Source: a virus
Lineage: Duplodnaviria > Caudoviricetes
IMG/VR virus record: IMGVR_UViG_2929656146_000003
Location: 14,215-78,214 of that record
DNA: 64,000 nucleotides
Reading direction: 5' to 3' (one strand)
A program made the translations under genes and the position numbers. Under the pieces are notes generated by a model that had not been told where the DNA came from, did no database searches, and worked only from the letters and a program-made list of their open reading frames with translations. Positions 8,757 to 64,000 of the stretch are shown in pieces; the first letter of the stretch is position 1, and the number at the start of each line of letters is the position of its first letter.

Positions 8757-9196
8757 CGCAGCGGACTCCAAGTCATGTCGTCATCCGAGCCGTCCGTCAG
8801 CGGGTTGATGCCGTAGTTGCTACTGCCGTCGACGAACGGAGAACGGATGTGAATGGTCCTGGAGCGTCGCCACGAGAGGCGGTTGATCGCGCGGGCGGCC
8901 ATCGGAGCCAGCACCACGGCGTCGGCCGTGAGGTTCGCCGAGATGCCGTCCTGCGTGGACGAGGTGAGATCCATCCGCGACTCCAGGCCGGCCTGCTGCG
9001 CCGCCCACACCGCCTGGTAGGCCACAGCCCGGCCGAGCCAGTACAGGTCCCGGGGGCGGATCCTGGCCGTGTCGGCGTACGTGCGGCCGGTCATGACTTC
9101 GATCGCCGCCTGCGCGGTCAGGACCTGGACGTCCGTGGCCTCGGCGCCAGTGACGGCGAGCACCGTATCGGTGTCGGTCCACGCCTGAATGGTCAT
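8753..9196 (-). CDS. Head-tail adaptor
   Basis: Directly after capsid gene; helical 'AQAAIE...LGRAVAYQA...LAPMAARAI'. Confidence 0.7.
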   Translation of the reverse strand: MTIQAWTDTDTVLAVTGAEATDVQVLTAQAAIEVMTGRTYADTARIRPRDLYWLGRAVAYQAVWAAQQAGLESRMDLTSSTQDGISANLTADAVVLAPMAARAINRLSWRRSRTIHIRSPFVDGSSNYGINPLTDGSDDDMTWSPLR

Positions 9197-22003: not shown

Positions 22004-23974
22004 TCACTCCTCGGCACCGGGCAGGTAGAACTGCTCGGCCTTGCCGGCCTTGCGTGACTGCACACCGTGGGTCTTCCACAGGTCGAGGGCCCGGCGGACG
22101 GTGTCCCGGCTACCGAACGGCCCCTCTTCGACCAGGCGTTCCTTCGTGGCGTAGCCCTCCTCCTCGCATAGCTGAAGGAAGACCCGGTACAGGTCGATCC
22201 ACTCGTCTCGACCGACCATGGTGCCGTCCGGGTAGACGGGCGGCGGCGGACCAACCGGCCGGGCCGGGGCGGGCTTGAACAGGGACGCCTGAACTCCGCC
22301 CCCGACGGGCCGGGTCTGCGCCGGGGCGGCGGCGTGCAGGTGCGCCACATCTGCGGCGATGTCCAGGTCCGTCACATACTCGGCCCGGCACTTCGGCGGA
22401 TCCGTCAACGGCATCTCCGGGCAGCCGATGTAGAACTCGCCTGGTCGGGTGAGCTTCTCCGGCGTGAAGCCGTTGCTCTTGCAGCCCTGCCCGAAGATGA
22501 ACACGCTGTGCCCGGCCTCGCCGACCCTGGTCGAGATGCGGTTCGCGTAGTTACCGCGGGCGTCGCTGGACCCGCCGAACACCTTCGCGGACGGCTGCTG
22601 CGTCGCGGACAGGAACATGATCCCCATCGAGCGGGCGATCGCCAGGGCGGACTCGTATGTCGTCGCGATGTCCTGCTCGGGCGGGCCCATCTCCGGGTCC
22701 AGCTTGCGGAGCTCCGCCTCCTGCTTGCGGAGTTCCTCGTCCTGCCGGATCAGCTCGGCGAGTTCGTCGGTCACGACGATCCATGCCGGGCCGTGGACGC
22801 CGGGGATCCACTTGCGGACGGGCTCGCGGCCGGCAGCCATCTCCCTCTTCGACAGCTCCTCCAGGTAGGCGCCACGGCGGTCGCACTCCGCGCGGATGTA
22901 CTGCAGGAGCTCGCGGGCCTCCTCGGCGGTTCGGGCGAGCCTGCGCATCTTCGGCTCCCACGGGCCGAGTTCCACGGCGCCAGGCTTCATATCGATGCCG
23001 AACAGCTCGACGTGCTTCTTCTTCAGCAGCTTCTTGATGATCAGGTTGATGATGCCGGACTTGCCCCAGTCCGATGCGCCGGCGACGAGGGTGTGCCGGT
23101 ACATGACGGTCAGCAGGACGGGCTGCCCGTACTCGGTCCAGCCGAGCCGGATCGGCTTGGTGATGTCGTCGGAGTCGTCGTCGGCGTACGGGATGACGCG
23201 GTCGTGGAACGGGCCGCCCGGGCCCCGGGGCGTCGACTGCTCTTCGGTGCTGCTGGACGCGGAGGCCTTCAGGGCGGCCTGGCCCCCCTGGTGCAGCTGG
23301 ACGTCGACGGAGGCGTTGGCCTTCGCCGTGGCGCTGGCTTTCCCCGGCAGCGCCTTGTGGTCCTTGCGGTGCTGGATCAGCCACGGCACGTACACCGCGT
23401 ACGCGGCGCCGGTGGTGACCGCTGCGGCGGTGAGGGAGACACCGCCAGGGCCGGTGCCGACAGCGGTGGCGACGTCGGCGAAGGTGAGCGTCAGGCCGGC
23501 TCCGGCCCGTGTCAGCATCTCGTCCTTCTTCTCTACCCCGGCGGCGGTGACCGCTGCACCCAGGACGGCAAGGCCGGCGTACGCGGCGGTTCCCCAGCCT
23601 CCGACACCGGCGAGGTACTGCCACCAGCCGAGACCGGTGACGGCGCCGACGGTCATGGCGGGGGCGAGCTCGACGCGGTACCGGATGACGAGGGCGCTGG
23701 CCTGGTTGGCGACGGCCACGCAGGCGGCGAGGAACCGCCTGGGCAGGGCTGGCCGGGTCTTCTGGACGACGTAGACGGAGCCCTCGACCACCGCCGTCGC
23801 GGGTGACGACGAGGCCCCAGTGGACTCGTCGTTTCCTGTTTCCGCAGGTCGCGGCTCTGCGATGGTCGTCGTCATCGGCATCGTCGGCGTGATCGTCGCG
23901 TTGTCCTGCCGCTGGGGTCGGGGGAGGAAGGGGAGGATCTGAGCCCCGTCGGCCGGGGGCAGGTACTGGGCCAC
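22004..23974 (-). CDS. traB: TraB-like FtsK/SpoIIIE conjugative DNA translocase
   Basis: N-terminal TM helices, Walker A 'AGASDWGKS', 'IDMKPGAVEL', Walker B 'VVTDELAEL', 'ARSMGI...ATQQP', short C-terminal wHTH-like domain; GAGGAG RBS before GTG. Confidence 0.85.
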   Translation of the reverse strand: MAQYLPPADGAQILPFLPRPQRQDNATITPTMPMTTTIAEPRPAETGNDESTGASSSPATAVVEGSVYVVQKTRPALPRRFLAACVAVANQASALVIRYRVELAPAMTVGAVTGLGWWQYLAGVGGWGTAAYAGLAVLGAAVTAAGVEKKDEMLTRAGAGLTLTFADVATAVGTGPGGVSLTAAAVTTGAAYAVYVPWLIQHRKDHKALPGKASATAKANASVDVQLHQGGQAALKASASSSTEEQSTPRGPGGPFHDRVIPYADDDSDDITKPIRLGWTEYGQPVLLTVMYRHTLVAGASDWGKSGIINLIIKKLLKKKHVELFGIDMKPGAVELGPWEPKMRRLARTAEEARELLQYIRAECDRRGAYLEELSKREMAAGREPVRKWIPGVHGPAWIVVTDELAELIRQDEELRKQEAELRKLDPEMGPPEQDIATTYESALAIARSMGIMFLSATQQPSAKVFGGSSDARGNYANRISTRVGEAGHSVFIFGQGCKSNGFTPEKLTRPGEFYIGCPEMPLTDPPKCRAEYVTDLDIAADVAHLHAAAPAQTRPVGGGVQASLFKPAPARPVGPPPPVYPDGTMVGRDEWIDLYRVFLQLCEEEGYATKERLVEEGPFGSRDTVRRALDLWKTHGVQSRKAGKAEQFYLPGAEE

Positions 23975-24067
23975 GAGGGGCTCCTCTCGGTACTGGGATG
24001 GGGTGGTCTGAGTGCTCGCGGCGGCCGCCCAACCGCAGGGGTTGGGCGTCACCGGCAGGCCGTCAGA

Positions 24068-25435
24068 TCAGCCGTCCGTCCCGGTGATCGGCCGGACGTT
24101 GTCGGACCCGAGCGCGGCAAGCTCGGGGTGCTCTCGCTCGATCTCCAGCCGGCGAGCGTTCGCGAACTGGCGGGACTTGGGGAGCTTCGCGGCCTTCAGG
24201 GCGGCCACCATCTCGGACTCCAGGGGGCGCCTTCCAAGGTCGGCGTAGAGCGCCTTGATGGCGTCTCGTGCGGCGTCCCGTGGCGCCGCCGTGGGGCGCC
24301 CTGAAGTGGTGGGCCGGGGCGCCTTCGTGGCGCTACGAGGGCGGGCGACGGGGCGCTTCTGGGGCGCTTCAGAAGCGGCATTGGTGGCGCTCTGACGGGC
24401 GCTGTCATAGCGCTCTCGGGGCGCCATAGCGTCGACTGCCGTGGCGCTCTGAGGGCGCTTCACAAGGTCGACGGTGGCGTCATGCGTGGCGCTCCCGTGG
24501 CGCCCCGAAGCCGCTGCCTGAGGCGCTTCCGTGGCGGGTGCGAGGGCGCTTTCGATGGCGCCCCGAATCACTGGTTGGGGCGCCACGATGCCGGACGCCA
24601 TGGCGCTTTCGGGGCGCTCTACGTAGATAGGCGGGAGCGCTTCCGTGGCGCCTTCATGGCAGTCGACGGTGGCGTCCTGAGGCGCCTCGATGGCGGCCTG
24701 TCCGTAGGCCTCGTGCAGCGCTGCGCCGATCGGCTTGCCAAGCTTGGCGAGCCTGATGGCGAGCTGCTCGGGCTTGGTGGCCTGCCTCTTCCATCCGCGT
24801 CCGTAGCGGATCCTGAGCGTGGTGCGGAAGACCTTCGACTCCTGTTCCATCAGGATCACTTCGGTGTAGGAGCGGATGTTCCACATGCGCATGCGGCGCC
24901 ACACGCGGTAGGTCGGCCACGGGGCGAGGAACCAGCGGGGCAGCGGCGGGTTCTCGTAGTAGGCGCCGCTGCTGATCTTCGCCATCCGGCCCACGGCGTG
25001 CCTGCCAGCCTCGACGATGAGGACGAACAGGATGGGCATGGTGGCGTGCATGCCTACGGCGATTTCGTCACCCCAGGAAGCGGCGACGTTGAAGGCGATC
25101 GTGGCGCCGGTGAGACCCCAGGCCGCGTAGCGCAGTAGGGGGAACGGCATGCGGAAGAAGGTGAGGAGGAGGTCAAGGGCAAGGAGGGTACCGATGCCGA
25201 CGTCGACGCCGAGGGGGAAGACGCGGGCGAAGTCGCCGAAGTCCTTCTTGATGGCGAGCCTGACAACGGCGTTGTAGGAGCCTGCGAAGCCGATGCCAGC
25301 GATGGAGATGGCGCCGGCAACGATGGCGCCGATGGTGGCTTTCTGCGGCTTGGTGAGCTCGCGCTTGGTGCGGGCGTCGAGGCCCAGCGCGGGAGTGGTG
25401 GTGAGCTCAGTCTCGGTGTTTGCGATCGGGTTCAC
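24068..25435 (-). CDS. DUF2637 membrane protein (Spd-like spread protein)
   Basis: Four TM segments 'GFAGSYNAV...FPLGVDVGI...TIAFNVAA...MHATMPILF..VEAGRH', low-complexity linker, C-terminal HTH-like end. Confidence 0.8.
   Translation of the reverse strand: MNPIANTETELTTTPALGLDARTKRELTKPQKATIGAIVAGAISIAGIGFAGSYNAVVRLAIKKDFGDFARVFPLGVDVGIGTLLALDLLLTFFRMPFPLLRYAAWGLTGATIAFNVAASWGDEIAVGMHATMPILFVLIVEAGRHAVGRMAKISSGAYYENPPLPRWFLAPWPTYRVWRRMRMWNIRSYTEVILMEQESKVFRTTLRIRYGRGWKRQATKPEQLAIRLAKLGKPIGAALHEAYGQAAIEAPQDATVDCHEGATEALPPIYVERPESAMASGIVAPQPVIRGAIESALAPATEAPQAAASGRHGSATHDATVDLVKRPQSATAVDAMAPRERYDSARQSATNAASEAPQKRPVARPRSATKAPRPTTSGRPTAAPRDAARDAIKALYADLGRRPLESEMVAALKAAKLPKSRQFANARRLEIEREHPELAALGSDNVRPITGTDG
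24224..24690 (+). repeat. Dense oriented array of GGCGCY motifs (candidate clt/TraB recognition locus)
   Basis: About 22 GGCGC(C/T) copies counted by eye in about 460 bp, often 10-12 bp apart, falling in more than one reading frame of the DUF2637 ORF. Confidence 0.6.
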
Positions 25436-26923: not shown

Positions 26924-29900
26924 TCAGTCCTCCAGGTCGGTGGGGTACTCGCCGAGGCGGGCGGTCTCGGCGAGCGAGCGGTGTTCTTGTGCCTGTGCGA
27001 GGCACTCGGTCCGGCCGGGGCCGTCGGCCTGGGCGGCGAGAAGCTTCAGGGCCGCGGCTTCCCTCAGGTGGTGGGCCACTGCGGCGGCGCGTTTCATGTC
27101 GATGTCCCCCTGCTCCGGTGCGGTGTGTGTGAGGGTGCGGGCCTTGGCGTGGGCTAGAGCGCGGCGCGCAGGTCTGCGAGGGCCTGGTCGGCGGCCCGCT
27201 GGCTGGGGGTCAGGATGCTGCGCGCGGCGCCGTGGATCGTGGCGGGCAGCAGGGCGCGGATGTCGCGCTCGTTGACGCCGGCTGCGATCGCGGCCTTGTA
27301 GGCCTCGCAGGCGTCGGCGACGGACTGGCTGTAGGTGGCGTCGGCCGCGGCGTCGGCCCGGTAGGCGGACTCGCTGCGGGCGACAGCGTCGACAACGGTT
27401 CGGATGAGGTGCTGCTGGCTGGCCATGGTTCCTCCTGGGAGTGAGGCGGCGGGCTGGGCGCGGGGCTCTCCTGGTCGGCGTTCAGGCCGCGCGGAGCAGC
27501 TCGCGGGTGGCCGGGTACATGTCGAGCTGCGCGGCCAGGTAGCGCTGGGCGACGTCGTCCTGGATGCCGGCGCTGGCGGCTGCGACGCGGTCGTGGAGGT
27601 CGGAGCTGAACCGGGCGGAGAGCTCCTCGTCGTGGCGGTGCTGGTCGGCGCCGGTCCACTGCGGGGTGTCGGTGAGCGGGCCGTGAGCGGACCAGATCTG
27701 CCAGGACGGGGTCTGGCCGGCCATCAGCTGGCCCGTGTAGACGCCCCACTTGGCTTTGCGGTCGAACTGGTAGTCGCCGTGGACGAGGCCCCCGCTTCCG
27801 GAGCTTCCGATCGGGGCGATTGTGTAGTAGGTGACGCCGAGCTTGGCGACGGTGTTGACCCACTGGTCGTGTTCGCGGCGGGCCTCGGCGGCGTAGCGCT
27901 GGCTGCGGGCACTGTCGATGGCGCGGTTGAGGAGCCTCATACTGAGGTTGCCCTTCTTGCTCGTTGGCGGGTGGTGGGGTGTCCGGGGCGGCCGGCTGTG
28001 CTTGGCGGCTGATGGCGGCCGCCCCGGGGGCGGGGCTAGGAAACGTGCTCGGAGGCGTCGGACTTGGCTTGGGCGACTGCGGCATACCAGTTGGCCTGGT
28101 CGTTGAACAGACGCTTGCCGGGATCGCTGGCGTTGTTCCAAGTGCAGGTGCAGAACGCCTCGATGGTGTTGCCGTCGGGGCAGGCTGTCTCGGTGACCAC
28201 CGCGGTGTGCTGACCGTTGCGGAACGCGGCGATGTCACCGCGGCCTGGGTAGATTTCGTGGGGAAGCACTGCTTTGGCCTCCTTGCGGCCAGGTCTGGGC
28301 TGGGTTGCGTGGTCAGGACCAGTGCCAGACCGAGCGGGTGCGGGCCGCCTCTGCGGCGGCTGCGCCGAGTTCGTAGCAGGCCTGCTGCCATGTCGGTGAG
28401 GCGAACGGGGTGAGGGCCTTGAACGCGGCGCCCATGCGCGCGGCCTGGTCGGGCTGGATGTCGAAGGTGTCTCCGCTGCCCCGGTTGAACAGTGGGCTGA
28501 TGGCGGCCCAGTCGCTTCGTGGGGCGATCTGCTTCAGGTACTCGCCGAGTTCGGTGTGCGCACTGTAGGAGCGGGTCCCGCCGGTCTGGTTGTGGTCCCA
28601 GGACCAGCCCATCAGTTCTTCCGAAGCTGTTCGGGCCGGTAGGTGCGCTCTCCGAGTACCGCCTCGACGAGTCGGTTGTCGATGCCCTTCACAGAGACCA
28701 GCTGGCCGACGTCATCGGTCTGGACCTGGACGACGGTGCCGGTGCGGCCGAGGGTCTTGGGGTTCTGCCCGTCGGTGTTGATCACGGTGACGCTGTCACC
28801 CTCACGAACGGCCATCAGGCGGCAGCCCGGTAGACGTCGACGTAGCCAGCGGGCAGGTGGAGCTCCTGCGCGGCGAACGCGAGGACCTCCGCGTCGGTGA
28901 CCGCACCGTACGTGTGGACGGGCTTGAAGACCGGGCCGGCGAACTCGGGGTGCCGGACGATCAGGCGGGCGGGCTCGCCCAGGATCCGGTCGGTGAAGTT
29001 CTTCATGATGTCCCTTCAGAATCAGACGTAGAGGGCGTAGGCGATGCCGCTGAGGATGAGGATCACGAGGATCACTACGGGGATGAGAGCAGCCAGGCGG
29101 TGGGCCTCCTCCCTTGCGCTGTCCTGAGGGGTGATGAGGTATCGGAGGTAGCTGCCATCGCCGTCCATCAGGTTGCCTTTCACGCGGCGGCCGGGTAGCG
29201 GATGGTGTCCGCGCCGAGCCGGTAGAGGAGGGTCGTGGCCAGAGCCTCGGCCTCGTGCTCGGCAGCGTCGATGACGGCGTCGCGTTCGGCGGGGGTGGCG
29301 TCGGGGCGCAGTCGGCCGAGGGCGATCTGCATGCTGGCGATGCCGTCGCGCTGCTCCTGCAAGGTGGCCATCAGACGGTTCCTTTCAGAGTCGGGCGGCG
29401 GCCTCACGGACCGCCTGGACGGTGTCGTACGGGGAGTCCTCCAGCGCGAAGACCTCCGCGCTGGGCAGTGCGGCGAGCATGCGGGCCGCGTGGGTGACGC
29501 ATCCGTTCGCGTTGATGTACGGGTTCCACTGGACGACATGGGCCACGACCGGGCCGTCACACGGGGGTTGTGCCTGCTTGCTGTGGTTCGCGGCGGACTG
29601 GGCGGCGTCGCAGTAGGCGCTCACTCGGTGTCCTCGTCGAACGGTTCGGTGAGGATGTCGATGTACGGGGTTCCGTCTGCGGCGGTCATGAGCGACAGGA
29701 GCTCGATCAGGCCGGCGCTGTTGGGGTCGTCGATGTCGACGGGGACCGGGTCACCGTTGCCGGCCATCAGACGATGTCCAGCGGGGTGCGGACCTGGGTG
29801 GCTTCGAGGTCGGTGATCTCCTGGACCTCCGCCCGGAACTGCTGGGCCAGGGTCTCGCGCAGGCCCTTGTCCTTGGCGGCGAGGAACTGCCTTGCCGTGG

Positions 29901-30265
29901 TCCGGGCCTTCGTTTCGAGGGCGGCGATCTGCTCGTCGAGGGTCACTGCTTGTCCTCCTTCTTGATCGGGTCGATGGGCTTCCGCGGCCGCGGGATCCTG
30001 GGGATGACCGGCCGGTTGTCCCAGTCGGTCACTTCGTGGGCTGCGGGGGGAGGGGCGGGAGGGGCTGGTGGCCGTAGCCGCCGTTCGTGGAGTGGTCGCC
30101 GGCGCCGTCGGCGAAGGCACGGTCGTAGTGCATGGGGTCCTCCTTGCTGGGGGTGATGGTCCGCTGGCCGATCGGGGGAGCCCCGAACGCCGGCGAGGGG
30201 CGGGACGGCTGCGGGCCGGGTTCAATGGGGTCGAGGCCGGGCCAGCCGTTGTGCGGGTCAGGCAT
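26924..30265 (-). CDS. Chain of small hypothetical genes (26924-27097, 27154-27426, 27482-27940, 28036-28269, 28313-28612, 28612-28815, 28815-29006, 29022-29168, 29180-29371, 29385-29624, 29621-29767, 29767-29946, 29943-30032, 30029-30265)
   Basis: Tightly packed; each has an RBS or a start/stop overlap; one operon upstream of the transfer genes. Confidence 0.6.
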
Positions 30266-30492
30266 CAGGCGGCGTCCGCCAGGTCGTGCATCGCCTGGAT
30301 CTTGGCCGCGACGACCGCGCGGGGGATGCGGATGGCACCGCCGCGACCGGCCTGGCCGCGGGACCACTGCTTGCCGTGGCGGATCGCTTCGAGCTCTCCG
30401 TCCTGCACCCAGCGGTAGATGGTGGGGATGCTGACCCGGAGCGCTTTCGCGACCTCCTTGACGGTCAGGACCGGTGGACTCTCGGGCAGCAT
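30265..30492 (-). CDS. Excisionase-like (HTH_17) DNA-binding protein
   Basis: 'LTVKEVAKALRVSIPTIYRWVQDGELEAIR...IRIP'; first gene of the leftward operon. Confidence 0.85.
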   Translation of the reverse strand: MLPESPPVLTVKEVAKALRVSIPTIYRWVQDGELEAIRHGKQWSRGQAGRGGAIRIPRAVVAAKIQAMHDLADAA

Positions 30493-30538
30493 GCTGAAGC
30501 CCTCCTTCCGAGGGGTTCCTCGTTGGCTGATGGACACA

Positions 30539-30577
30539 ACTATATAGGTTCTCTTGAGAAGCTGCAATGTTCTCAGG
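30539..30577 (-). promoter_or_regulatory. Leftward promoter/operator
   Basis: Minus strand TTGCAG-N17-TATAGT; spacer contains palindrome TTCTC-NN-GAGAA. Confidence 0.75.
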
Positions 30578-30664
30578 CTGTGTTCGAGCTACCAGGGCCG
30601 CAACCTTGTGCCTTAACTTGAAAGGCGACAAGGTTTCCCGCTCTGTGCCAAAAGGAGGCGACTG

Positions 30665-31207
30665 ATGGCTGACGAAGGCCAGCTGGACGCGTCGGCTGCC
30701 TACCTCCGAGCACCCACCAGCGGACACCGCGATGCATGGAGCGAGCTCGCACGCGCATCTGGGCGGCAGGGTGGTCAACGGCTGATTGAAGTGGGTGAAG
30801 TCGAGGCGCCAGAAGGCGTCGCCTGCGCGCTCCGTTTGCCCGTAGGGGCGCTCGTCTCGATCCGGCGCAGGGTGATCACGCTTGATGGCCGTGCAGTGGA
30901 AGTCGCAAGTTCCTACTACCCGGCCGACATAGCGGCGGGCACTCCGCTGGCGAGACCCGCACGCATTCGAGGCGGGGCTGTGGCGGTGTTGGCAGCCCTC
31001 GGGCACCAACCAGTGGTTGCTCACGAGGAAGTGGCGGCCAGGCCAGTGTCAGCAGCTGAGCTGGAGATCCTTGACGCGAACCCGTCTGACTGGGTCCTCG
31101 ATCTCCTGCGAATTGCTCTGGATGTGACTGGGCGCCCTGTCGAGGTCTCTCTGATGACCATGCTGGCCGTTGGCCGGAAGCTCCACTACACCGTCGAGAT
31201 CGGCTGA
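30665..31207 (+). CDS. Stand-alone UTRA-domain protein (no HTH)
   Basis: 'RRRVITLDGRAVEVASSYYP.DIA.GT.L..P.RIRGG...EEVAAR' parallels the UTRA domain of the next gene; AGGAGG RBS; no N-terminal wHTH. Confidence 0.8.
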   Translation: MADEGQLDASAAYLRAPTSGHRDAWSELARASGRQGGQRLIEVGEVEAPEGVACALRLPVGALVSIRRRVITLDGRAVEVASSYYPADIAAGTPLARPARIRGGAVAVLAALGHQPVVAHEEVAARPVSAAELEILDANPSDWVLDLLRIALDVTGRPVEVSLMTMLAVGRKLHYTVEIG

Positions 31208-31211
31208 GATC

Positions 31212-32015
31212 ATGAAAGAACACGACATCAGTACCACCAGTGAGGCACCGGACAAGCCGACTCTTGAGCAGGAAAAGGGCGCCTGGCCGCAACACGAACT
31301 CCTGGCGAGCTACCTGCGCGACGGCATCCTGTCCGGCGACTTCCCTGCCGGCAGCCTGCTGCCGTCGACGAGGCTCCTGCGAGAGAAGTTCGGGGTTGCA
31401 CCCCAGACCATCAAGCACGCAAATGACCAACTGGCCAGCGAGGGCCTTGTCCGCAGCCACCGAGGCAAGGGCATCATCGTGCTTGATCGCCGCCCACAGA
31501 CCGTGGTGCCTGCGGCGACCAAAAGGCCGGCAAACCCGGGTGACCCGTATCGCTGGATCACCGAAGCATCGAAGAGTGGGCTGCAGGGAGCGAGTGTCCT
31601 TCTCGACGTAGACGAGGTCGTTCCGCCCAAAGACGTTGCGCGGGCGCTCGGACTTGGGGCGAGTGGCGTGGCCCTTCGGCGCGAGCAAGTCCTCACGCTC
31701 GACGGCGAGCCGGCCGAATACGTGAGGGCGTACTACCCTGTGGATATCGCGCGAGGCACTGAGATCGCCGTTCGCAAGCGGATCAGGGGCGGGACGCCGC
31801 GGGTCCTTCAGGACCTTGGGTATCCGCCGCTCAGGTGTGTGGACACTGTTTCGGCGCGTGTTCCGACGCCGGACGAGGTCAAGGCCCTGGGTACGCCCAC
31901 CAAGGTTCCAGTCCTCAGGACACTGCGCGTGGTTCACAGCGTTGACGACAGAGTGGTGGAGGTCGCTGTGATGGCGAAGGCAGGCCACCTCTACGAGCTG
32001 CAGTACGACTTCTAG
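31212..32015 (+). CDS. GntR/HutC-family repressor with UTRA domain (KorSA/TraR-like)
   Basis: 'LRDGILSGDFPAGSLLPS...FGVAPQTI..A...LASEGLV....GKG' GntR HTH plus UTRA. Confidence 0.9.
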   Translation: MKEHDISTTSEAPDKPTLEQEKGAWPQHELLASYLRDGILSGDFPAGSLLPSTRLLREKFGVAPQTIKHANDQLASEGLVRSHRGKGIIVLDRRPQTVVPAATKRPANPGDPYRWITEASKSGLQGASVLLDVDEVVPPKDVARALGLGASGVALRREQVLTLDGEPAEYVRAYYPVDIARGTEIAVRKRIRGGTPRVLQDLGYPPLRCVDTVSARVPTPDEVKALGTPTKVPVLRTLRVVHSVDDRVVEVAVMAKAGHLYELQYDF

Positions 32016-32038
32016 CCCCTGCGTCGGGAGCGATCAAG

Positions 32039-32072
32039 CTACGGCCCTGCCTTAGTCATGGCGGGGCCGTAG
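32039..32072. terminator. Bidirectional terminator hairpin
   Basis: CTACGGCCCTGCC...GGCGGGGCCGTAG between convergent GntR and PemK genes. Confidence 0.7.
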
Positions 32073-32078
32073 TAGTTG

Positions 32079-32465
32079 CTAGCCGAGTTCTCCGAGGAGC
32101 CCGAATGAGCGGGCCAGGACTGTGTTCAGCTCGGCCATCTGGGGAGGGCGCAGGCGACCAGCGAAGCGTTCGAGGCGGGACTGGTCGATGGTCATCACCT
32201 GAAATCCCAGGATGTCACCGGCATCGGGGAGGGGGTCACCAGCCTGAAGGGTCACCGTGATGGGGGAGGTTTCGCGAACCCTGGTTGTCATCGCCGCGAC
32301 GGTCACCGTAGGCATACGGCTATTGAACGAGTCCAGCGAGATCACGACGGCGGGCCGATGGCCGGCCTGCTCTGAACCGCGTGCTGGGTCGAAGTCCACC
32401 CAGTAGATGTCTCCCCGCTGAGGGGACGGCGGCCGCCTGAGAGGCGGAGGGCTCGGTACGGGCAC
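32079..32465 (-). CDS. PemK/MazF-family endoribonuclease toxin
   Basis: 'RGDIYWVDFDPARGSEQAGHRPAVVIS...QVMTIDQSRL'. Confidence 0.92.
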   Translation of the reverse strand: MPVPSPPPLRRPPSPQRGDIYWVDFDPARGSEQAGHRPAVVISLDSFNSRMPTVTVAAMTTRVRETSPITVTLQAGDPLPDAGDILGFQVMTIDQSRLERFAGRLRPPQMAELNTVLARSFGLLGELG

Positions 32466-32474
32466 TCGGACAGC

Positions 32475-32729
32475 TTAGTACTCGGGCCACTCCGCCGAAC
32501 CCGCATCCCATGCGGCCGCAGCCCACTCTGCCGACTCGTCGGCGAATACTGCGAACGCATCTCCCAAGCCATCATCGGGGGACGGCGTGGCGGTGGCGAG
32601 TTCCACCTGTGGAGAGCTTTGCAGGGAGAGGGACAGCCAGGGGAAGCACTCCGCGAGGCTTGCTGACGGTGCGCCGACAAGTGGGTAAACCACCTGGGCG
32701 GAGTTGCTCTGAGAAGGTGCGGTGCTCAT
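32475..32729 (-). CDS. Putative antitoxin (acidic C-terminus)
   Basis: 84 aa directly upstream of the toxin; ends 'FADESAEWAAAAWDAGSAEWPEY'. Confidence 0.55.
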   Translation of the reverse strand: MSTAPSQSNSAQVVYPLVGAPSASLAECFPWLSLSLQSSPQVELATATPSPDDGLGDAFAVFADESAEWAAAAWDAGSAEWPEY

Positions 32730-33076
32730 GGCTGTTCCCCCTGTGCCTCGTCGTAGATCTCGGCCGCCGACTCCAGGATCTTGATGAGCTCCTGGATACG
32801 GTCTCGTGTCAGGACGAATCTGCCAAGAGGTTTCACGGGCAGCTTATGCCCGGATTCGGCCAACCGCTCGACGATCTCTTCGTCCGAGCCGAACAGTAGG
32901 GGTGGCTCAAGGATCCCCATGGTCAGGTAGATGGAGTCTGGCCGGCCTGACGCGTTTGGAACGCCGAGCGCAACGGCGAACTGGTTGGTCGGTTGAGCAG
33001 GGCCGGCGGGGTCTTCCCACACCAGTCGGAACTTCGCGGTGTGTGCCGTGGTGCTCGTGATGGGGGGCTTGGTCAC
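32726..33076 (-). CDS. Hypothetical protein, first gene of toxin operon (DUF3467-like pattern)
   Basis: 116 aa 'TNQFAV...IYLTMG..EPP...GRFVLT...QELIKIL'; ATGA-coupled to next gene. Confidence 0.6.
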   Translation of the reverse strand: MTKPPITSTTAHTAKFRLVWEDPAGPAQPTNQFAVALGVPNASGRPDSIYLTMGILEPPLLFGSDEEIVERLAESGHKLPVKPLGRFVLTRDRIQELIKILESAAEIYDEAQGEQP

Positions 33077-33206
33077 ACGGACAGTCTGCCACCGTCAACT
33101 GATCAGCATGCAGGCGCCAGCCAGGTTCCGCTGCGACTGGCCACCCTAAGGGGGGAACTGCCACGTATTGGCTGCGCCTGCGATTGCAGTTCAGGGCGCG
33201 CGCAGT

Positions 33207-33245
33207 CCCGAGAACATTGAAACTTCTCAATAGAACCTATAAGGT
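33207..33245 (+). promoter_or_regulatory. Rightward promoter/operator
   Basis: TTGAAA-N17-TAAGGT; 33207-33241 is a 31/35 inverted copy of 30543-30577. Confidence 0.75.
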
Positions 33246-33268
33246 TTGATGTGCTGCACAACGTAAGA

Positions 33269-33293
33269 CGGCCCCGCAGTAGGTGCGGGGCCG
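33269..33293 (+). other. Leader hairpin
   Basis: CGGCCCCGCA-GTAGG-TGCGGGGCCG, perfect 10-bp stem just downstream of the promoter. Confidence 0.6.
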
Positions 33294-33356
33294 CGACTTC
33301 ACCGCGCGTGCAAGTGGCCTGGTAACCGGAACACGCGCAGATCGGAGATCTCCATC

Positions 33357-33998
33357 ATGGCATTCGCCGTCAAGAGCGTCGACGTCACCCCGGCGGTGAC
33401 CCGATGATCGCCGTCACCGTCGCCCGCCCCACCGAGAACACCGCCGTCGGCCTCATGCCGGTCCGTGAGCTCGGCAACCTCGGCGCCTACCACCTCGCCC
33501 GGTTCGCCCTCAAGACCGGGGACATGTACGGCGCCCGCCTGTTCACCAAGAGCTACCTGCGCGCCCTGGCCGGCGGCAAGGTGGGGGAGTCGCTGTGATC
33601 ACCATGACCGCCCCGCGGATCACCGCCGGCCTCGTCCCCGTCGAGTTCGGCAACCCCGGGCCCGCGATGCACCCCGTGCAGATCGACGCCGTCACCCTGA
33701 TCGTCGGCTACGACCCGCGGGTCCTCGACGCCGACCTCGTTACCACGATCCTGCAGTCCGTGCACGGCGCCGACCTCGTCATCGTCGAGGAGGTGCCTGA
33801 GTGAAGCTCCTCCAGTCCCTCCACAAGGACCAGCCTGGCGCGGCCGCCCAGATCGCCGCGACCGCGGACGACGCCCGCACGCTCGGCTTCGAGAACGTCG
33901 CGACGCACTACGAGCCCCAGACAGGCCACCACACCGTCACGGGTGACCTGCCCGCGGCGACGGCGCAGCGCACCGTCGACCGGATCCTCGGCCGCTGA
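33357..33998 (+). CDS. Four coupled small ORFs (33357-33407, 33404-33598, 33595-33804, 33801-33998)
   Basis: RBS and chained ATGA/GTGA overlaps. Confidence 0.6.
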
Positions 33999-34111
33999 GG
34001 CCTGCTTGGGCCGCCCCGTGATGGGGCGGCCCCTCGTTCACCCTCACCTTCGTGTCCAGCTGGAGAAGCCGTGTTCCTGCGTACCCCTGCCGCCGTACTG
34101 GCGGTGCGCTG

Positions 34112-35089
34112 ATGGGGATCAAGCTGGTCGAAGAGGTCATGGACTGGTGTCCGGATGATGTGACGCCAGCGCAGCGCTGGTGTTTGACGGTGTTGGCGCG
34201 GGATGCGAACGACGCGACCCGGGAGACCTTTCACGGCCCGGAGCATCCCGAGATCCTGCGCCGGGTGCGGTTGTCGGCGAAGCGGTGGGAGGCGGTGCGG
34301 TCGTCGTTGTTGAAGCGGGGGTTGATCGAGCCGGTGTCAGGTGGGTATCGGGGGCGTGCGGGGCGGTATCGGATCGCGTGCTTGTTCGCTCCGTGTGTGA
34401 TTGGGGACGGTCGAAAGACCCCTGGTTTTCGGGGGGCTTTCGGTGGCTACCAGCCGGTAAGGGGGCAGAAAGACCCTCAGGTTCCGGGGGTCAATCACTC
34501 TGAAAGCCCCCCGGAACCTGAGGGTCTTTCGTCGGAAAGCCCCCTGGAACCCGAGGGGCAATCGGCCGAAAGACCCCCGGAAACCAGGGGTCCTACTCCT
34601 CCTTCTTTCTCCTCCCAACCACCCTCCTCCCGACCCGCGCCTCCCGAGCCGCCCACCGGACCCGAGCCGGACGACGGACGGGAGGGCGGGGGGACCGCCT
34701 CACGGCGGCAGGACAACCCCGCCTACGCCGCCCTCGCCCGCATCGCAGCCCGCCACCACCAACTCGCCCTCGGCGAAAACGAGATCGCCACCCTCGCCCC
34801 ACTCGTCGCCCCCTGGCTCCAGCGGACCACCGAGGCCCGCATGGAGCACGCGATCACCACGGGCATGCCCGCTACCGTCACCAACCCTGTCGGGTTCCTG
34901 CGCCGCCGGCTCGTCGAGAAGCTCCCTCCGCCGCTCGCCGCCGTCCCCGACGAAGAACGCTGCGGTCGCCCGAACTGCGACCCGATCACCCACATGGTCA
35001 CCCTCCCCGGAGGCGACCAAGCGCACTGCGCCACCTGCCACCCCACCGGGCGCGCCCTCGCCCGCCGAGCCCAAGGAACCGCCGCATGA
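34112..35089 (+). CDS. Replication initiator (HTH Rep), island copy
   Basis: N-terminal wHTH-like 'LTVLARDAND...LLKRGLIE....GRAGRYRI', internal DNA repeats, C-terminal 'NPVGFL..RL' and Zn motif; ATGA-coupled to DnaB. Confidence 0.75.
   Translation: MGIKLVEEVMDWCPDDVTPAQRWCLTVLARDANDATRETFHGPEHPEILRRVRLSAKRWEAVRSSLLKRGLIEPVSGGYRGRAGRYRIACLFAPCVIGDGRKTPGFRGAFGGYQPVRGQKDPQVPGVNHSESPPEPEGLSSESPLEPEGQSAERPPETRGPTPPSFSSQPPSSRPAPPEPPTGPEPDDGREGGGTASRRQDNPAYAALARIAARHHQLALGENEIATLAPLVAPWLQRTTEARMEHAITTGMPATVTNPVGFLRRRLVEKLPPPLAAVPDEERCGRPNCDPITHMVTLPGGDQAHCATCHPTGRALARRAQGTAA
34413..34593. repeat. Five iteron-like quasi-palindromes (candidate origin)
   Basis: GAAAG(A/C)CCC..GG....(G/A)GGG units start at 34413, 34468, 34502, 34535, 34568; first two inverted relative to last three. 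Confidence 0.75.
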
Positions 35090-36465
35090 CCGACCACGAC
35101 GACGACCAGGCCCTCGGCCCCGTCCCGCCGCAGGACCTCCACGCCGAACGCGCCGTCCTCGGCGCCATGCACCTCGCCTCCACCGCGGTTGCCGATGCCG
35201 TCGGCACCGGCCTGCGCGGCAGCGAGTTCTACCGCCCCGCCCACGAAAAGATCTACGACGCGATCGTCGCCCTGTACGCCGCCGGCGACCCTGCCGACCC
35301 GATCACCGTGTCCCGGCAGCTGGCCGTCACCGGCGACCTGGACAGGTGCGGTGGGCCCGGCTACCTGCACACGCTCGTCAAGGCTGCTCCGGCGGCGGCG
35401 AACGCCGAGTACTACGCGGCGATCGTCCGCGAGAAGGCCCGACTGCGTACTCTCGCGGTGGCGTTGAACCGCGGCTCGCTGATGATCGCCCAGGCCGAGG
35501 GCGATCCGGCCGAGGTTGTCGAGGCGATCCAGGCGGAGATCATTGCCGCAGCCGGGAACCCGGACGGGCCGGGCGCGTCCTCGGTCGGCCTGGCCGTCGT
35601 GCGCGACACCCTGGGAGCTGCTCTCGATGCGATCGAGGCCGTCAACGAGGGCTCTACGCCGATCGGCGTCCCGTGGGGCTTCAGGGACCTGGACGCGCTG
35701 ACCGGTGGCATGCACCCCGGCCAGATGATCGTCATTGCAGGGCGGCCGGGCATGGGCAAGTCCACCGGAGGTATGGACATCGCCCGGTCCGCCGCGATCG
35801 GGCACGGCCTCGGCACGGCGTTCTTCTCGCTGGAGATGTCCCGTGTCGAGATCATGAAGCGGTTGATCTGCGCCGAGGGATGCGTCCCCCTGCACCACAT
35901 GCAGGTCAAGGCTGGCATGACGGATGACGACTGGACGCGGGTTGCGAAGGTCATGCCGCGGATCTCGGACGCTCCGCTGTACCTCGACGACTCGCCGGAC
36001 CTGACGATGACGTCGATCCGGACGAAGGCCCGCCAGATCGCCGCTGAGACCGAGTTGAGGCTCATCGTGATCGACTACATGCAGCTGCTGCGGTCCGGGG
36101 GCGGGCACCGCTACGAGTCCCGGCAGCAGGAGGTCTCGGACCTGTCGAGGTCGATCAAGTTGCTGGCGAAGGAGTTGGAGATCCCGGTGATCGCCCTGTC
36201 GCAGCTGAACCGCGGCCCGGAGCAGCGCACCGACAAAAAGCCGATGGCGGCTGACCTGCGGGAGTCCGGGGCGATCGAGCAGGACGCCGACTTGATCATC
36301 CTGTTGCACCGTGAGGACGCCTACGACAAGGAGTCGGCGCGGGCGGGGGAGGCGGACTGGATCGTGGCGAAGAACCGGTCGGGGCCGACGTCGACGATCA
36401 CGGTCGCCTTTCAGGGGCACTATGCCCGTTTCGTCGACATGGCTGCGGATCTTCGGGCAGCCTGA
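35086..36465 (+). CDS. dnaB: Replicative DNA helicase
   Basis: 'PPQDLHAERAVLGA', 'AGRPGMGKST', 'FSLEMS', 'IDYMQL', 'LSQLNR', 'DLRESGAIEQDAD', 'KNRSGP'. Confidence 0.97.
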   Translation: MTDHDDDQALGPVPPQDLHAERAVLGAMHLASTAVADAVGTGLRGSEFYRPAHEKIYDAIVALYAAGDPADPITVSRQLAVTGDLDRCGGPGYLHTLVKAAPAAANAEYYAAIVREKARLRTLAVALNRGSLMIAQAEGDPAEVVEAIQAEIIAAAGNPDGPGASSVGLAVVRDTLGAALDAIEAVNEGSTPIGVPWGFRDLDALTGGMHPGQMIVIAGRPGMGKSTGGMDIARSAAIGHGLGTAFFSLEMSRVEIMKRLICAEGCVPLHHMQVKAGMTDDDWTRVAKVMPRISDAPLYLDDSPDLTMTSIRTKARQIAAETELRLIVIDYMQLLRSGGGHRYESRQQEVSDLSRSIKLLAKELEIPVIALSQLNRGPEQRTDKKPMAADLRESGAIEQDADLIILLHREDAYDKESARAGEADWIVAKNRSGPTSTITVAFQGHYARFVDMAADLRAA

Positions 36466-43457: not shown

Positions 43458-43796
43458 GTGAGCACAGCCCTCCACCCCACATGGTGCGACCCCGCACACT
43501 GCGACGTCCCCGACCGCCAGCCGCTCGGAGCCCGCGGCGGCGCCCACCGCTCCAAGCTGGTCGCGCTCAACCTGGAAGCCGAAGCCCGCGGCGAAACTGG
43601 CCACGTCTACGCCGGCCTCGCCCAATCCGCCCGACCCCGCGCCGGCGTGTTCCTCAAATGGATCATCAACGGCGAAGTCGTCGGCCACCTCCCCCTCGCC
43701 GACGCCGAACCCCTCGCCTGGCTCATCGCCGACGGACTCGCCAACCTCCGCGGCGACGACCAGCCCATCGAACACGCAAAAGCGCCCGACCAGTAG
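43458..43796 (+). CDS. Hypothetical protein, probably leaderless and SOS-inducible
   Basis: 112 aa 'HPTWCDPAHC...HRS'; GTG 6 nt after the -10 element. Confidence 0.65.
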   Translation: MSTALHPTWCDPAHCDVPDRQPLGARGGAHRSKLVALNLEAEARGETGHVYAGLAQSARPRAGVFLKWIINGEVVGHLPLADAEPLAWLIADGLANLRGDDQPIEHAKAPDQ

Positions 43797-43820
43797 GCCG
43801 GGCGCAACGGGCGAGAGTGG

Positions 43821-52908: not shown

Positions 52909-53052
52909 CGGGATCCCCCAGTGACCAAGTAGCGCTACCTTGTTGCGCTGTCTGGTATCCACCATAGCCGCCGTAATCGAGAAGCGCAACCATGTAGCGG
53001 TCCCAAGATGCGCTCCTACCCAGCGAACCCAACCCGCGATACCCTTACAACC

Positions 53053-62895: not shown

Positions 62896-63791
62896 GACTC
62901 CCCGCCCGTCCGCTGCCGCGGCAGCCACCCCCGCGAGTCCCGCGCCGAGCACAACCCGGTGCAGCAGTGCGCCATGTGCTCGTACCAGCGACGCAGGAAC
63001 CAGACCAACATCCCGACTGACAGCACCACGCCGACCGCGACGATCAGCAACTCCCAACGGTCCGCGCTCACGACGCCACCGCCGCACGCCACTTCTCCAA
63101 CGCGTTCGAGTAAGACGCACTGTCGTCCGTGCACCATTCGCACGGCGCCGTCCGGCCAGTGAGGTGCTCACACAGCAACTGCGTCTCGGCCTCGTCCGCA
63201 CGGTCCGGGTGCACCTCGGCGGCATACATCAGGATGATCGCGAAAGCGACACCGTCGACCGTGAACGACAGCATCTGTGTCGTCCGGCCCGTCCTTGTGT
63301 TGGTCCACGGGTCGTACTTCCTGGCGCCGAGCTTCTCCGCCAGCCTGGCGCCGGCGCCGGCCGGGGCATCCCAGTAGGTGCCCTGCGCCTGCCCGGACGC
63401 GGCCAGGATTGACCAGGTGGCGATCGGCAGGTCGTGGTGGGTGGCGAGGAGCTTCGCGAGTGCTCGGGAGACGTGGAGTTGCGGGTGGGGGGTAGAGTCG
63501 GCTCTCATGGCCTGCCTCCTTGTTGTGTGGATGGTTGGGCCGTAGGGGTCGCCTTGGAATGGCCTCCAACGGCGGCCCCGGCCGAAAGGTCTAGGCGGCG
63601 ATGGACTGCCGCGTCGGCGCTTCGGTCGACCGGGCGCTCAGATCGGCGTTCACCCGGGCCATGGCCGGGGCGAGGATCGGCCGGAGCTCGGCGACTACCT
63701 CCGCGCTCGGCGGCGGTGCTGCGGCAGCCCGGCGGCGAATCTCAGCCAAAAGCTGCGGGCCCAGCAACCGAAGGTGGTCGGCAGGCGTCAT
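62892..63791 (-). CDS. Hypothetical genes (63068-63508, 63591-63791 and a small membrane ORF ending at 62892)
   Basis: RBS or start/stop overlaps in the early operon. Confidence 0.55.
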
Positions 63792-64000
63792 GCGGCTTCC
63801 TCCACGTCGTCCAGAAGCTCCGAGACGCTGATGTCGTACGCCCGCGCGATCCGCTGCAGGCGGCCGACACGGGGCTCTCGGGTGCCGCGGAGGTACCGGG
63901 AGATGGAGCCCTGATCGAGGCCAGTGCGCTTGGTGATCGTGGCGACGGTCTGGCCTGCGGTGATGCGGGCGAAGTTGCGCTGGAAGGTCGTGCTGCTCAT
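63788..64000 (-). CDS. XRE-family HTH (Cro-like)
   Basis: 'TGLDQGSISRYLRGTREP....L.RIA....ISVSELL'; at the head of the early operon, start at window edge. Confidence 0.85.
   Translation of the reverse strand: MSSTTFQRNFARITAGQTVATITKRTGLDQGSISRYLRGTREPRVGRLQRIARAYDISVSELLDDVEEAA

Follow-up and report, generated by a model that had tools for sequence, protein, structure and literature searches.

What is the role of two near-identical promoters that face away from each other across a regulator operon in the middle of a temperate phage? The question is raised by IMG/VR record IMGVR_UViG_2929656146_000003 (Duplodnaviria; Caudoviricetes), of which we analysed positions 14,215 to 78,214, a stretch of 64,000 nucleotides (nt) referred to below as the window. 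The window belongs to a temperate prophage of roughly 75 kb that lies within a 9.1-Mb genome and carries, in its middle, a module consisting of a leftward operon headed by a gene for a small DNA-binding protein of the HTH_17 family (HTH, helix-turn-helix) and including an FtsK-like translocase gene, a rightward arm including dnaB and, between the two, a core encoding a GntR-type regulator. Sequence comparisons with related loci point to one element-encoded repressor, most likely this GntR protein, that would act on both arms, a reading to which we assign a probability of roughly 0.6.

The twin sites and their conservation

The sites in question and the regulatory genes next to them are as follows.

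30538-30577: left arm of a 40-nt inverted repeat, holding P_L and an operator-like spacer
33207-33246: right arm of this repeat, with P_R and an operator-like spacer
30539-30567, minus strand: predicted promoter P_L, made of TTGCAG (30567-30562), a 17-nt spacer and TATAGT (30544-30539), pointing to the HTH_17 gene
33217-33245, plus strand: predicted promoter P_R, made of TTGAAA, a 17-nt spacer and TAAGGT, pointing to a leader, small open reading frames (ORFs), an initiator-like gene and dnaB
30602-30635, plus strand: P_U, a third related site with arms AACCTTGT and ACAAGGTT around CTTGAAAGGCGACAAG, just before the UTRA-GntR operon
30265-30492, minus strand: HTH_17, an excisionase-family small DNA-binding protein of 75 amino acids (aa); PF12728, E 2.9e-13; TIGR01764; PHROG excisionase/regulator
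30665-31207, plus strand: UTRA-only protein, 180 aa, without HTH; PF07702, E 6.8e-20; no GntR domain
31212-32015, plus strand: GntR/HutC-type regulator, 267 aa, candidate repressor; PF00392, E 2e-13, and PF07702, E 8.1e-18

The two arms, separated by 2629 nt, were found by a repeat finder to be identical at 34 of 40 positions (85% complementary) and are the longest inverted repeat within 29500-34500. An initial annotation of this DNA had described a 31/35 match between 30543-30577 and the reverse complement of 33207-33241, together with outward promoters of the form TTGCAG-N17-TATAGT (leftward) and TTGAAA-N17-TAAGGT (rightward); the match, the quoted sequences and the hexamers were all confirmed. 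With up to three mismatches allowed, a 32-nt probe matches only the two arms in the window and nothing in 100 shuffles, and a degenerate 28-mer searched at the same tolerance matches only the two arms in the carrying genome (9,135,998 bases less 1,821). The pattern TTGNNN-N17-TANNGT, which we derived from the two sites in the light of what is known of promoters in actinomycetes, has three matches in the window against 0.47 expected, a number reached in 0 of 100 shuffles; two of the three are P_L and P_R. It also matches the promoter region of a Cro-like gene situated just beyond the window end; the Cro promoter shares this host-type pattern with both sites. The palindrome TTCT(C/A)TTGAGAA occurs at 30549-30560 and 33224-33235, two matches against 0.10 expected (two being reached in 1 of 100 shuffles), and a ribosome-binding site, GGAAGGAGGG, lies upstream of the HTH_17 ATG at 30492. 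The third window match to the promoter pattern (52961-52989, minus strand), a possible internal promoter, falls within an early-region ORF of weak coding character.

Conservation was assessed over 23 loci, namely the window, 10 genomes of the same genus (L016-L025) and 12 IMG/VR viral contigs found by protein alignment (L045-L056). GntR orthologues with 43-62% identity are present in 10 of the 166 other genomes of the genus. The UTRA-only gene lies directly upstream of the GntR gene in all 23 loci, and an HTH_17 gene divergent from this operon was recognized in 21 of them, 19 by tblastn and two (L023 and L025) by Pfam; it was not found in L056, and L024 was outside the Pfam scan. The arrangement in these 21/23 loci, with HTH_17 on the left and UTRA-GntR on the right, is that of a GntR regulator divergent from and adjacent to the operon putatively under its control.

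Scanning both strands of all 23 loci (364 kb) with TTGNNN-N17/18-TANNGT returned 43 matches, against 17.0 expected anywhere from block shuffles. P_L, the leftward match in the HTH_17/UTRA intergenic region, is present in 20 loci (missing in L047, L049 and L056), and P_R, the rightward match after the GntR gene, in 19 (missing in L047, L048, L056 and L045, the sequence of the last reaching only 1475 nt past the GntR gene). Eighteen loci have both, and the two positions together account for 39 of the 43 matches. A Streptomyces linear plasmid with the same UTRA/GntR pair displays the same outward pair of matches, and the Micromonospora phage pMLP1 encodes a 47% identical GntR protein accompanied by a P_L match. 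No long inverted repeats (at least 22 nt, at least 80% identity) were found in the relatives, and a 30-mer best-match test remained at noise level for most of them; it was the pattern-based scan that resolved the sites. The arms are a conserved pair of outward-facing predicted promoter-operators flanking the regulator operon.

Candidate readers of the sites

The 17-nt spacer of a promoter is not needed for sigma-factor contacts. Five groups of loci can be told apart, each with a shared spacer core of its own, read by eye.

Group A (window, L016-L018, L045): TCAAGAA
Group of L046: TTCAGGAAACCCTG, in an independent near-identical left/right pair (27/30)
Group B (L019, L020): TA(A)GGCG
Group C (L021-L025): CTTTTnGCGAA; P_L here contains a perfect 20-bp dyad
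Group D (L049-L055): CGTAAGC

The spacer of P_L agrees with that of its own P_R at a mean of 10.6 of 17 positions, compared with 7.4 of 17 for the P_R spacers of other groups, and the own-pair similarity is the higher of the two in 16 of 18 loci and in all five groups. This co-variation of the P_L and P_R spacers between groups argues for an element-encoded protein that reads both sites, which lie between -35 and -10, the usual position for a repressor. The UTRA-GntR operon is itself preceded closely by a related core, which in the window corresponds to P_U (30602-30635), a site kept in the window, L016-L018 and L045 that could be read as TTGTGC-N17-CAAGGT, that is, as a weak promoter with the shared core. 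Another motif considered for these sites, YWTCARGAR, was dropped as too degenerate to inform.

Two DNA-binding proteins are encoded at this spot, GntR and HTH_17. The recognition helix of GntR reads APQTIK(H/N)AND in group A, APQTIREATMK in L046, AS(T/I)TAVQNAMR in group B, ASNASVQKAVG in group C and SNVTVQRALQ in group D. That of HTH_17 hardly differs between groups A and B (PTIYRWVQDGEL versus STVYRWVQDGEL) though the P_L/P_R spacers of these groups differ, and comparison of the window with L019 by eye gave 2/12 identical positions for the GntR helix and 10/12 for the HTH_17 helix. Because the GntR helix changes with the spacer and the HTH_17 helix does not, GntR is favoured as the reader of the group-specific core. 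The initial proposal of a single repressor, the enclosed GntR, acting on both arms is thus borne out in part: the shared and co-varying spacers speak for one repressor, and analogy and the same co-variation suggest GntR as its identity.

We propose that the 2.7-kb core would be the control region of the module, with two host-type promoters facing outward. P_L would drive HTH_17 and a long leftward operon including the genes for a DUF2637 protein and the FtsK-like translocase, and P_R would drive a structured leader followed by three small ORFs and the genes for an initiator-like protein and DnaB. At both promoters the putative operator would lie in the 17-nt spacer together with the -35 flank, with the related P_U placed before the regulator's own operon. 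A GntR dimer on all three sites would occlude RNA polymerase and hold both arms off together, release coming from a ligand at the UTRA domain or from loss of the GntR protein, and this switch would be separate from a CI/Cro switch beside the integrase. What the sequences themselves show is the repeat, the conservation of the outward pair, the co-varying spacers and the gene content; in this scheme we infer which protein binds the sites, the sign of the regulation, what acts as inducer and how far the transcripts extend.

A number of observations weigh against it. The related loci are kin, and the counts given above overstate their independence. Own-pair spacer similarity is barely above background in group D (8.5 versus 7.5) and is below background in 2 of the 18 loci. 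The dyads are both short and imperfect, with two overlapping candidates that are indistinguishable: TTCTC-AA-GAGAA shares its centre with the 20-bp dyad of group C, and the alternative (C/A)TTG-N8-CAA(G/T) has five matches in the window against 0.76 expected, three of them at P_L, P_U and P_R. The TTCT-N4-AGAA palindrome originally noted in the spacers is present at both sites, but it is strong only in the window, the closest relatives of the window keeping only TTC-AA-GAA. A scan with an Escherichia coli-type consensus called no promoter in 30200-33700, since neither site agrees with TTGACA/TATAAT at more than 8 of the 12 positions. The operator canonical for HutC proteins, GT-N4-AC (NyGTMTAKACNy; PMC4494728), was seen by eye on neither strand of 30538-30577 or 33207-33246; since the available part of the same source lists HutC members with other motifs, this absence does not exclude GntR binding. 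Lastly, the promoter before the UTRA-GntR operon of L019, a group-B locus, is by eye 29/37 identical to the group-A P_L cassette in opposite orientation (around 8900-8990 of the oriented locus), which fits a second reader such as HTH_17 rather than a single repressor; HTH_17 may recognize this core and influence the regulator's promoter much as Cro does.

Judging from L019, there seems to have been some exchange of promoter-operator cassettes from one position to another.

A second reader would imply a two-protein switch, in which HTH_17 reads part or all of the sites, either as a Cro-like counterpart to a CI-like GntR or as the protein that alone makes the arms alike. Besides the L019 cassette, such a switch would accommodate the position of HTH_17 as the first leftward gene in 21/23 loci, the conservation of its recognition helix between groups A and B, its BldC-like, excisionase-family similarity and the AGAAC-like direct repeats that lie 21 nt apart in the sites, BldC being a protein that binds direct repeats. 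The constancy of the same helix becomes a difficulty once it is set beside the P_L/P_R spacers, which do change between groups A and B; furthermore, HTH_17 scores 27.8 bits against a BldC model with a cutoff of 77, and no precedent was found in the literature consulted for comparison. We regard this explanation as rather unlikely, yet a part for HTH_17 alongside GntR is quite possible.

Another explanation would make the arms two copies of one good promoter, arisen by duplication or gene conversion and alike through shared sigma contacts, with no dedicated repressor. Both sites fit the host-type pattern of the Cro promoter, and the 34/40 identity in the window stands far above the 10-11 of 17 spacer positions shared in its closest relatives, as recent conversion would give. 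The spacer, however, is dispensable for sigma and still co-varies between left and right in 5/5 groups; group C has its perfect 20-bp dyad within it, and the regulator operon is always found between the two promoters. These features make promoter copying without a repressor improbable.

The initial annotation also suggested that the repeats could allow inversion of the 2.7-kb core, in other words that they are recombination sites of a phase switch inverting some 2.6 kb. A 40-nt inverted repeat flanking a discrete cassette is what one would expect of such a device, but the longest exact run common to the arms is 10 nt, no ORF of 30265-33076 contains a recombinase domain (the serine integrase being about 32 kb away), and the HTH_17-UTRA-GntR orientation is the same in 21/21 readable loci, none of which is inverted. 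Moreover, since 13 loci have P_R as close as 13-84 nt to the GntR stop, the invertible unit would there be the regulator operon alone, and we consider inversion most improbable. Just as improbable is a small transposable cassette with the arms as terminal inverted repeats, for although inverted ends bracket a unit whose MazF cargo is absent from relatives, the unit contains no transposase, no target-site duplication was seen beside the arms, the arms are kept in relatives without this cargo and the genome contains a single arm pair.

Genes of the arms and the core

On the left, HTH_17 is the first gene and is followed by many small ORFs and by genes encoding DUF7739, DUF6197, DUF2637 and FtsK/SpoIIIE proteins, the last two being

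24068-25435, minus strand: DUF2637 protein; PF10935, E 3.5e-28
22004-24052, minus strand: FtsK/SpoIIIE-domain protein; PF01580, E 8.7e-07

Neither of the names first given to genes of this arm, xis and traB, could be established. HTH_17 has an excisionase-family fold, but the integrase of the prophage is a large serine recombinase and not a tyrosine integrase, which makes an excisionase role doubtful; serine integrases are known to use unrelated directionality factors. At least one true relative of HTH_17 is found among the matches listed, and a family-wide search gave matches in one genus only, in 3 of 400 searched genomes besides the window's own. As for traB, only the ATPase core of the FtsK-like protein (residues 287-540) matches plasmid and phage collections, the matches being to FtsK-like proteins of five Streptomyces plasmids (130-133 kb) and of Streptomyces phage Gilgamesh (129 kb; 'FtsK-like DNA translocase'), and no match to plasmid TraB was detectable beyond these five plasmids of about 130 kb. 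The five plasmids may themselves be phage-plasmids of the Gilgamesh kind. In L017, tblastn finds the DUF2637 gene and no FtsK-like gene within 20 kb.

The right arm comprises the following features.

33269-33408, plus strand: conserved leader after P_R, containing two hairpins, the first GGCCCCGC..GCGGGGCC and the second with loop TGGCCTGGTAACCG, and a 16-codon ORF
33404-33998, plus strand: three small ORFs (64, 69 and 65 aa), the first genes of the right arm, kept in L016, L017 and L020
34052-35089, plus strand: initiator-like protein, 345 aa, homologues of which start at residue 21
35086-36465, plus strand: DnaB-type replicative helicase; PF03796, E 3.5e-94; PF00772, E 3.3e-27; phrog_19

The first hairpin of the leader is a 9-bp GC stem; the second has an invariant loop and two compensatory pairs, in a comparison of three sequences only. 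The stop of the 16-codon ORF (MAFAVKSVDVTPAVTR) overlaps the ATG at 33404, and this ORF extends to about 70 codons in L016. The leader has no Rfam match and its single-sequence fold is unexceptional (z = -1.25). No Pfam hit was obtained for the three small ORFs. The DnaB identity originally assigned to the rightward helicase is firm on the basis of Pfam, and the evidence for calling its neighbour rep is suggestive at most. The 345-aa protein has no family hit, 319 relatives having been found; its model displays a winged helix, confidently predicted, at the N-terminus, then a disordered linker and a Cys-rich C-terminal domain, and its best fold matches, a plasmid Rep-DNA complex (5kbj) and MarR-type winged HTH proteins, are weak (E about 0.06). 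Within the linker-coding part of the gene (34408-34600) is an array of about six palindromic units of 27-33 nt (GAAAGACCCC..GGGGGCTTTC type), for which Rfam gave sub-threshold hairpin matches only (34416-34594). The array is suggestive of an origin with iterons inside the initiator gene or, alternatively, of a translocase recognition locus; its units contain GACCCCCGGAA, which presumably resembles the 8-bp TraB recognition repeats.

Between the arms, the core operon starts with the UTRA-only gene, whose stop codon precedes the GntR ATG by 4 nt. The GntR protein combines an N-terminal GntR winged HTH (residues 46-104 of the longer ORF; PF00392) with a C-terminal UTRA effector/dimerisation domain (PF07702). 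Its relatives in the PDB include DasR, NagR/YvoA and 1v4r, a chain which matches the N-terminus at E 5.6e-07 and which we take to be the DNA-binding domain of pSN22 TraR. The UTRA-only protein, approximately 30-35% identical to the UTRA domain of GntR itself and represented on a plasmid by a homologue with the RefSeq name 'UTRA domain-containing protein', may heterodimerise with GntR or buffer its ligand; a literature search found no paper on such a UTRA-only/GntR pair.

The remainder of the core is occupied by cargo (32079-33076), which sits between the GntR gene and P_R.

32079-32465, minus strand: MazF/PemK toxin; PF02452, E 4.3e-27
32475-32729, minus strand: 84-aa ORF, possible antitoxin
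32726-33076, minus strand: 116-aa ORF

The MazF cassette was found in none of the 22 related loci searched. The same slot contains a Gp49 (HigB-like) and HTH_3 pair in L016, a PCMT methyltransferase and a GIY-YIG protein in L018 and a SocA/Panacea protein in L019. The distance from the GntR stop to P_R is 13-84 nt in the 13 loci where the slot is empty and 856-2972 nt in six loci (the window and L016-L020) where the gap is filled by cargo. A blastn search with 29000-35000 returned only a GntR fragment and a MazF fragment from plasmids, and nothing from phages.

The surrounding prophage and known systems

Tail, capsid, scaffold and portal genes occupy the first 16 kb of the window, and exonuclease, RecT, SSB, WhiB and methylase genes are found at 45-64 kb. 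A large serine recombinase (PF00239 and PF07508, 509 aa) is encoded just past position 64000 and is the sole integrase found when 20 kb on either side of the window were searched; an amidase gene is situated some 9-10 kb beyond position 1. In a second genome the module has the same block of virion genes next to it, with proteins 44-86% identical, and in a third it has part of that block, indicating that the module belongs to the phage and is not an inserted element.

Two features define the early side of the prophage.

L057 4301-5213 (window 63788-64000 and beyond): CI-like HTH_3 protein, 166 aa, and Cro-like protein, 70 aa, a divergent pair beside the integrase
43782-43805, minus strand: strong terminator-like hairpin of 10 base pairs (9 GC) with TTTTG after it

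The CI-like protein matches the PHROG 'transcriptional repressor'. Read by eye, the CI/Cro intergenic region has three GAGCATGA boxes around a TTGCTT-N17-TAGCGT promoter, and these boxes are unlike the twin sites, in support of the view first put forward that the twin-site switch is separate from the phage lytic switch; either the CI-like protein or GntR may be the repressor that maintains lysogeny. The hairpin would end a leftward early operon at the point where it meets the rightward DnaB arm, and transcription from the Cro side probably stops short of the virion genes, which are on the same strand and downstream of P_L.

The proposed design has precedents in actinomycete plasmids and integrative elements. 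KorA of pMEA300, as described in the available part of PMC2440964, binds at korA-traA, in a region with a 14-bp inverted repeat that recurs upstream of the replication genes; ImpA of SLP1 recognizes a 16-bp inverted repeat at its own promoter as well as a second promoter ahead of the transfer genes, and the two-gene imp operon, whose product ImpC is described with an HTH motif, represses replication (PMC2440964, same portion). The module shares with these systems a GntR-type regulator, here a candidate repressor, a putative operator at the promoters of both a transfer-like arm and a replication arm (here 34/40 identical, with spacers that co-vary in 5/5 groups, its operator role being inferred) and a two-gene regulatory operon. 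It differs from KorA and ImpA in that whole promoter copies face outward, and from the ImpC described there in that the second operon product is a UTRA protein without HTH. Unlike the integrative and conjugative elements of actinomycetes (AICEs), which measure 10-17 kb in the sources as available, the module resides in a prophage of about 75 kb with a serine integrase and a CI/Cro pair of its own.

TraR of pSVH1 has, in the part of the paper by Thoma et al. accessible to us, a sole binding site upstream of spdB3, the first gene of a long operon ending in traB; it is thought to control the long transcript through traB, and its sites are 14-bp direct repeats, TTTGGTACACAACT (PMC4447253). A GntR gene beside a long operon with an FtsK-like translocase recalls the kil-kor arrangements of TraR and KorA (pSVH1, pSN22, pIJ101) to the extent that these sources describe them; in contrast to pSVH1 as there described, the sites here are not TTTGGTACACAACT-type direct repeats, and a second, rightward target heads the DnaB arm. 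Likewise, KorSA of pSAM2 represses pra and itself and acts through the activator Pra, with no binding at the transfer genes according to the portion of PMC2440964 at hand, and SCO3932 of S. coelicolor is a HutC-type GntR with the motif AC[TC]T[AG]TT[GC][TG][GT]ACG in the available text of PMC8584621. Both resemble our candidate as HutC-type GntR proteins of a mobile element, described in those texts as binding their own and a neighbouring regulatory promoter and silencing the element; the motif given for SCO3932 differs from the one found here.

The geometry of the core is also that of a classical phage. In lambda, the repressor gene and accessory, non-essential cargo lie between the outward early promoters P_L and P_R, with related operators. 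The likeness to the lambda P_L/rexB-rexA-cI/P_R region extends to a regulator and cargo between outward promoters (about 2.4-2.6 kb apart) and to a rightward initiator-like gene with origin-like repeats followed by a helicase gene. Unlike in lambda, the part of repressor would fall to a GntR/HutC protein carrying a ligand-binding domain instead of to a CI-type HTH_3 protein, one site can be defined on each side instead of three, and the prophage has a separate CI/Cro-like pair.

Given pMEA300 KorA, SLP1 ImpA and pSVH1 TraR, as far as the sources consulted describe them, the design proposed here is already known, and with Kor-type GntR proteins acting through one operator at transfer and replication promoters on record for pMEA300 and SLP1 in the same excerpts, our surprise is moderate. 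What sets the present case apart is a setting in a large temperate phage that has a CI/Cro pair of its own, an invariant UTRA partner lacking an HTH, duplicated outward promoters and a cargo slot. A literature search combining temperate phage, GntR repressor, lysogeny and Streptomyces found nothing; no title or abstract on such a module was present among the matches listed for prophage, GntR, FtsK and actinobacteriophage, and the available part of the Samy prophage paper mentions neither GntR nor FtsK. If correct, our reading would mean that a prophage family couples replication, and possibly DNA translocation and late genes, to a metabolite-sensing repressor, adding a chemical input to phage and plasmid activation in antibiotic-producing actinomycetes. 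The signature P_L, UTRA-GntR, P_R may serve to find such control regions in phages, AICEs and linear plasmids, and the ever-present UTRA partner without HTH is a candidate means of tuning a HutC repressor.

A broader picture, which we offer tentatively and do not favour in its entirety, is that of a temperate actinophage with two decision points, the CI/Cro pair for the early recombination genes and a central small-molecule-sensing switch. The latter would combine a HutC repressor, an HTH-less UTRA paralogue forming one-headed heterodimers or buffering ligand, a Cro-like HTH_17 protein and lambda-style P_L and P_R promoters, gating the DnaB arm and the leftward operon toward the virion genes. 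The cassette would move between phages and large linear plasmids, its flank being a preferred landing site for toxin-antitoxin genes.

Another genome of the same genus (G064) contains three copies of the module with identical scores (contigs C1, C2 and C4; loci L006, L014 and L015), one of them some 22 kb short of the end of a contig of 8.5 Mb.

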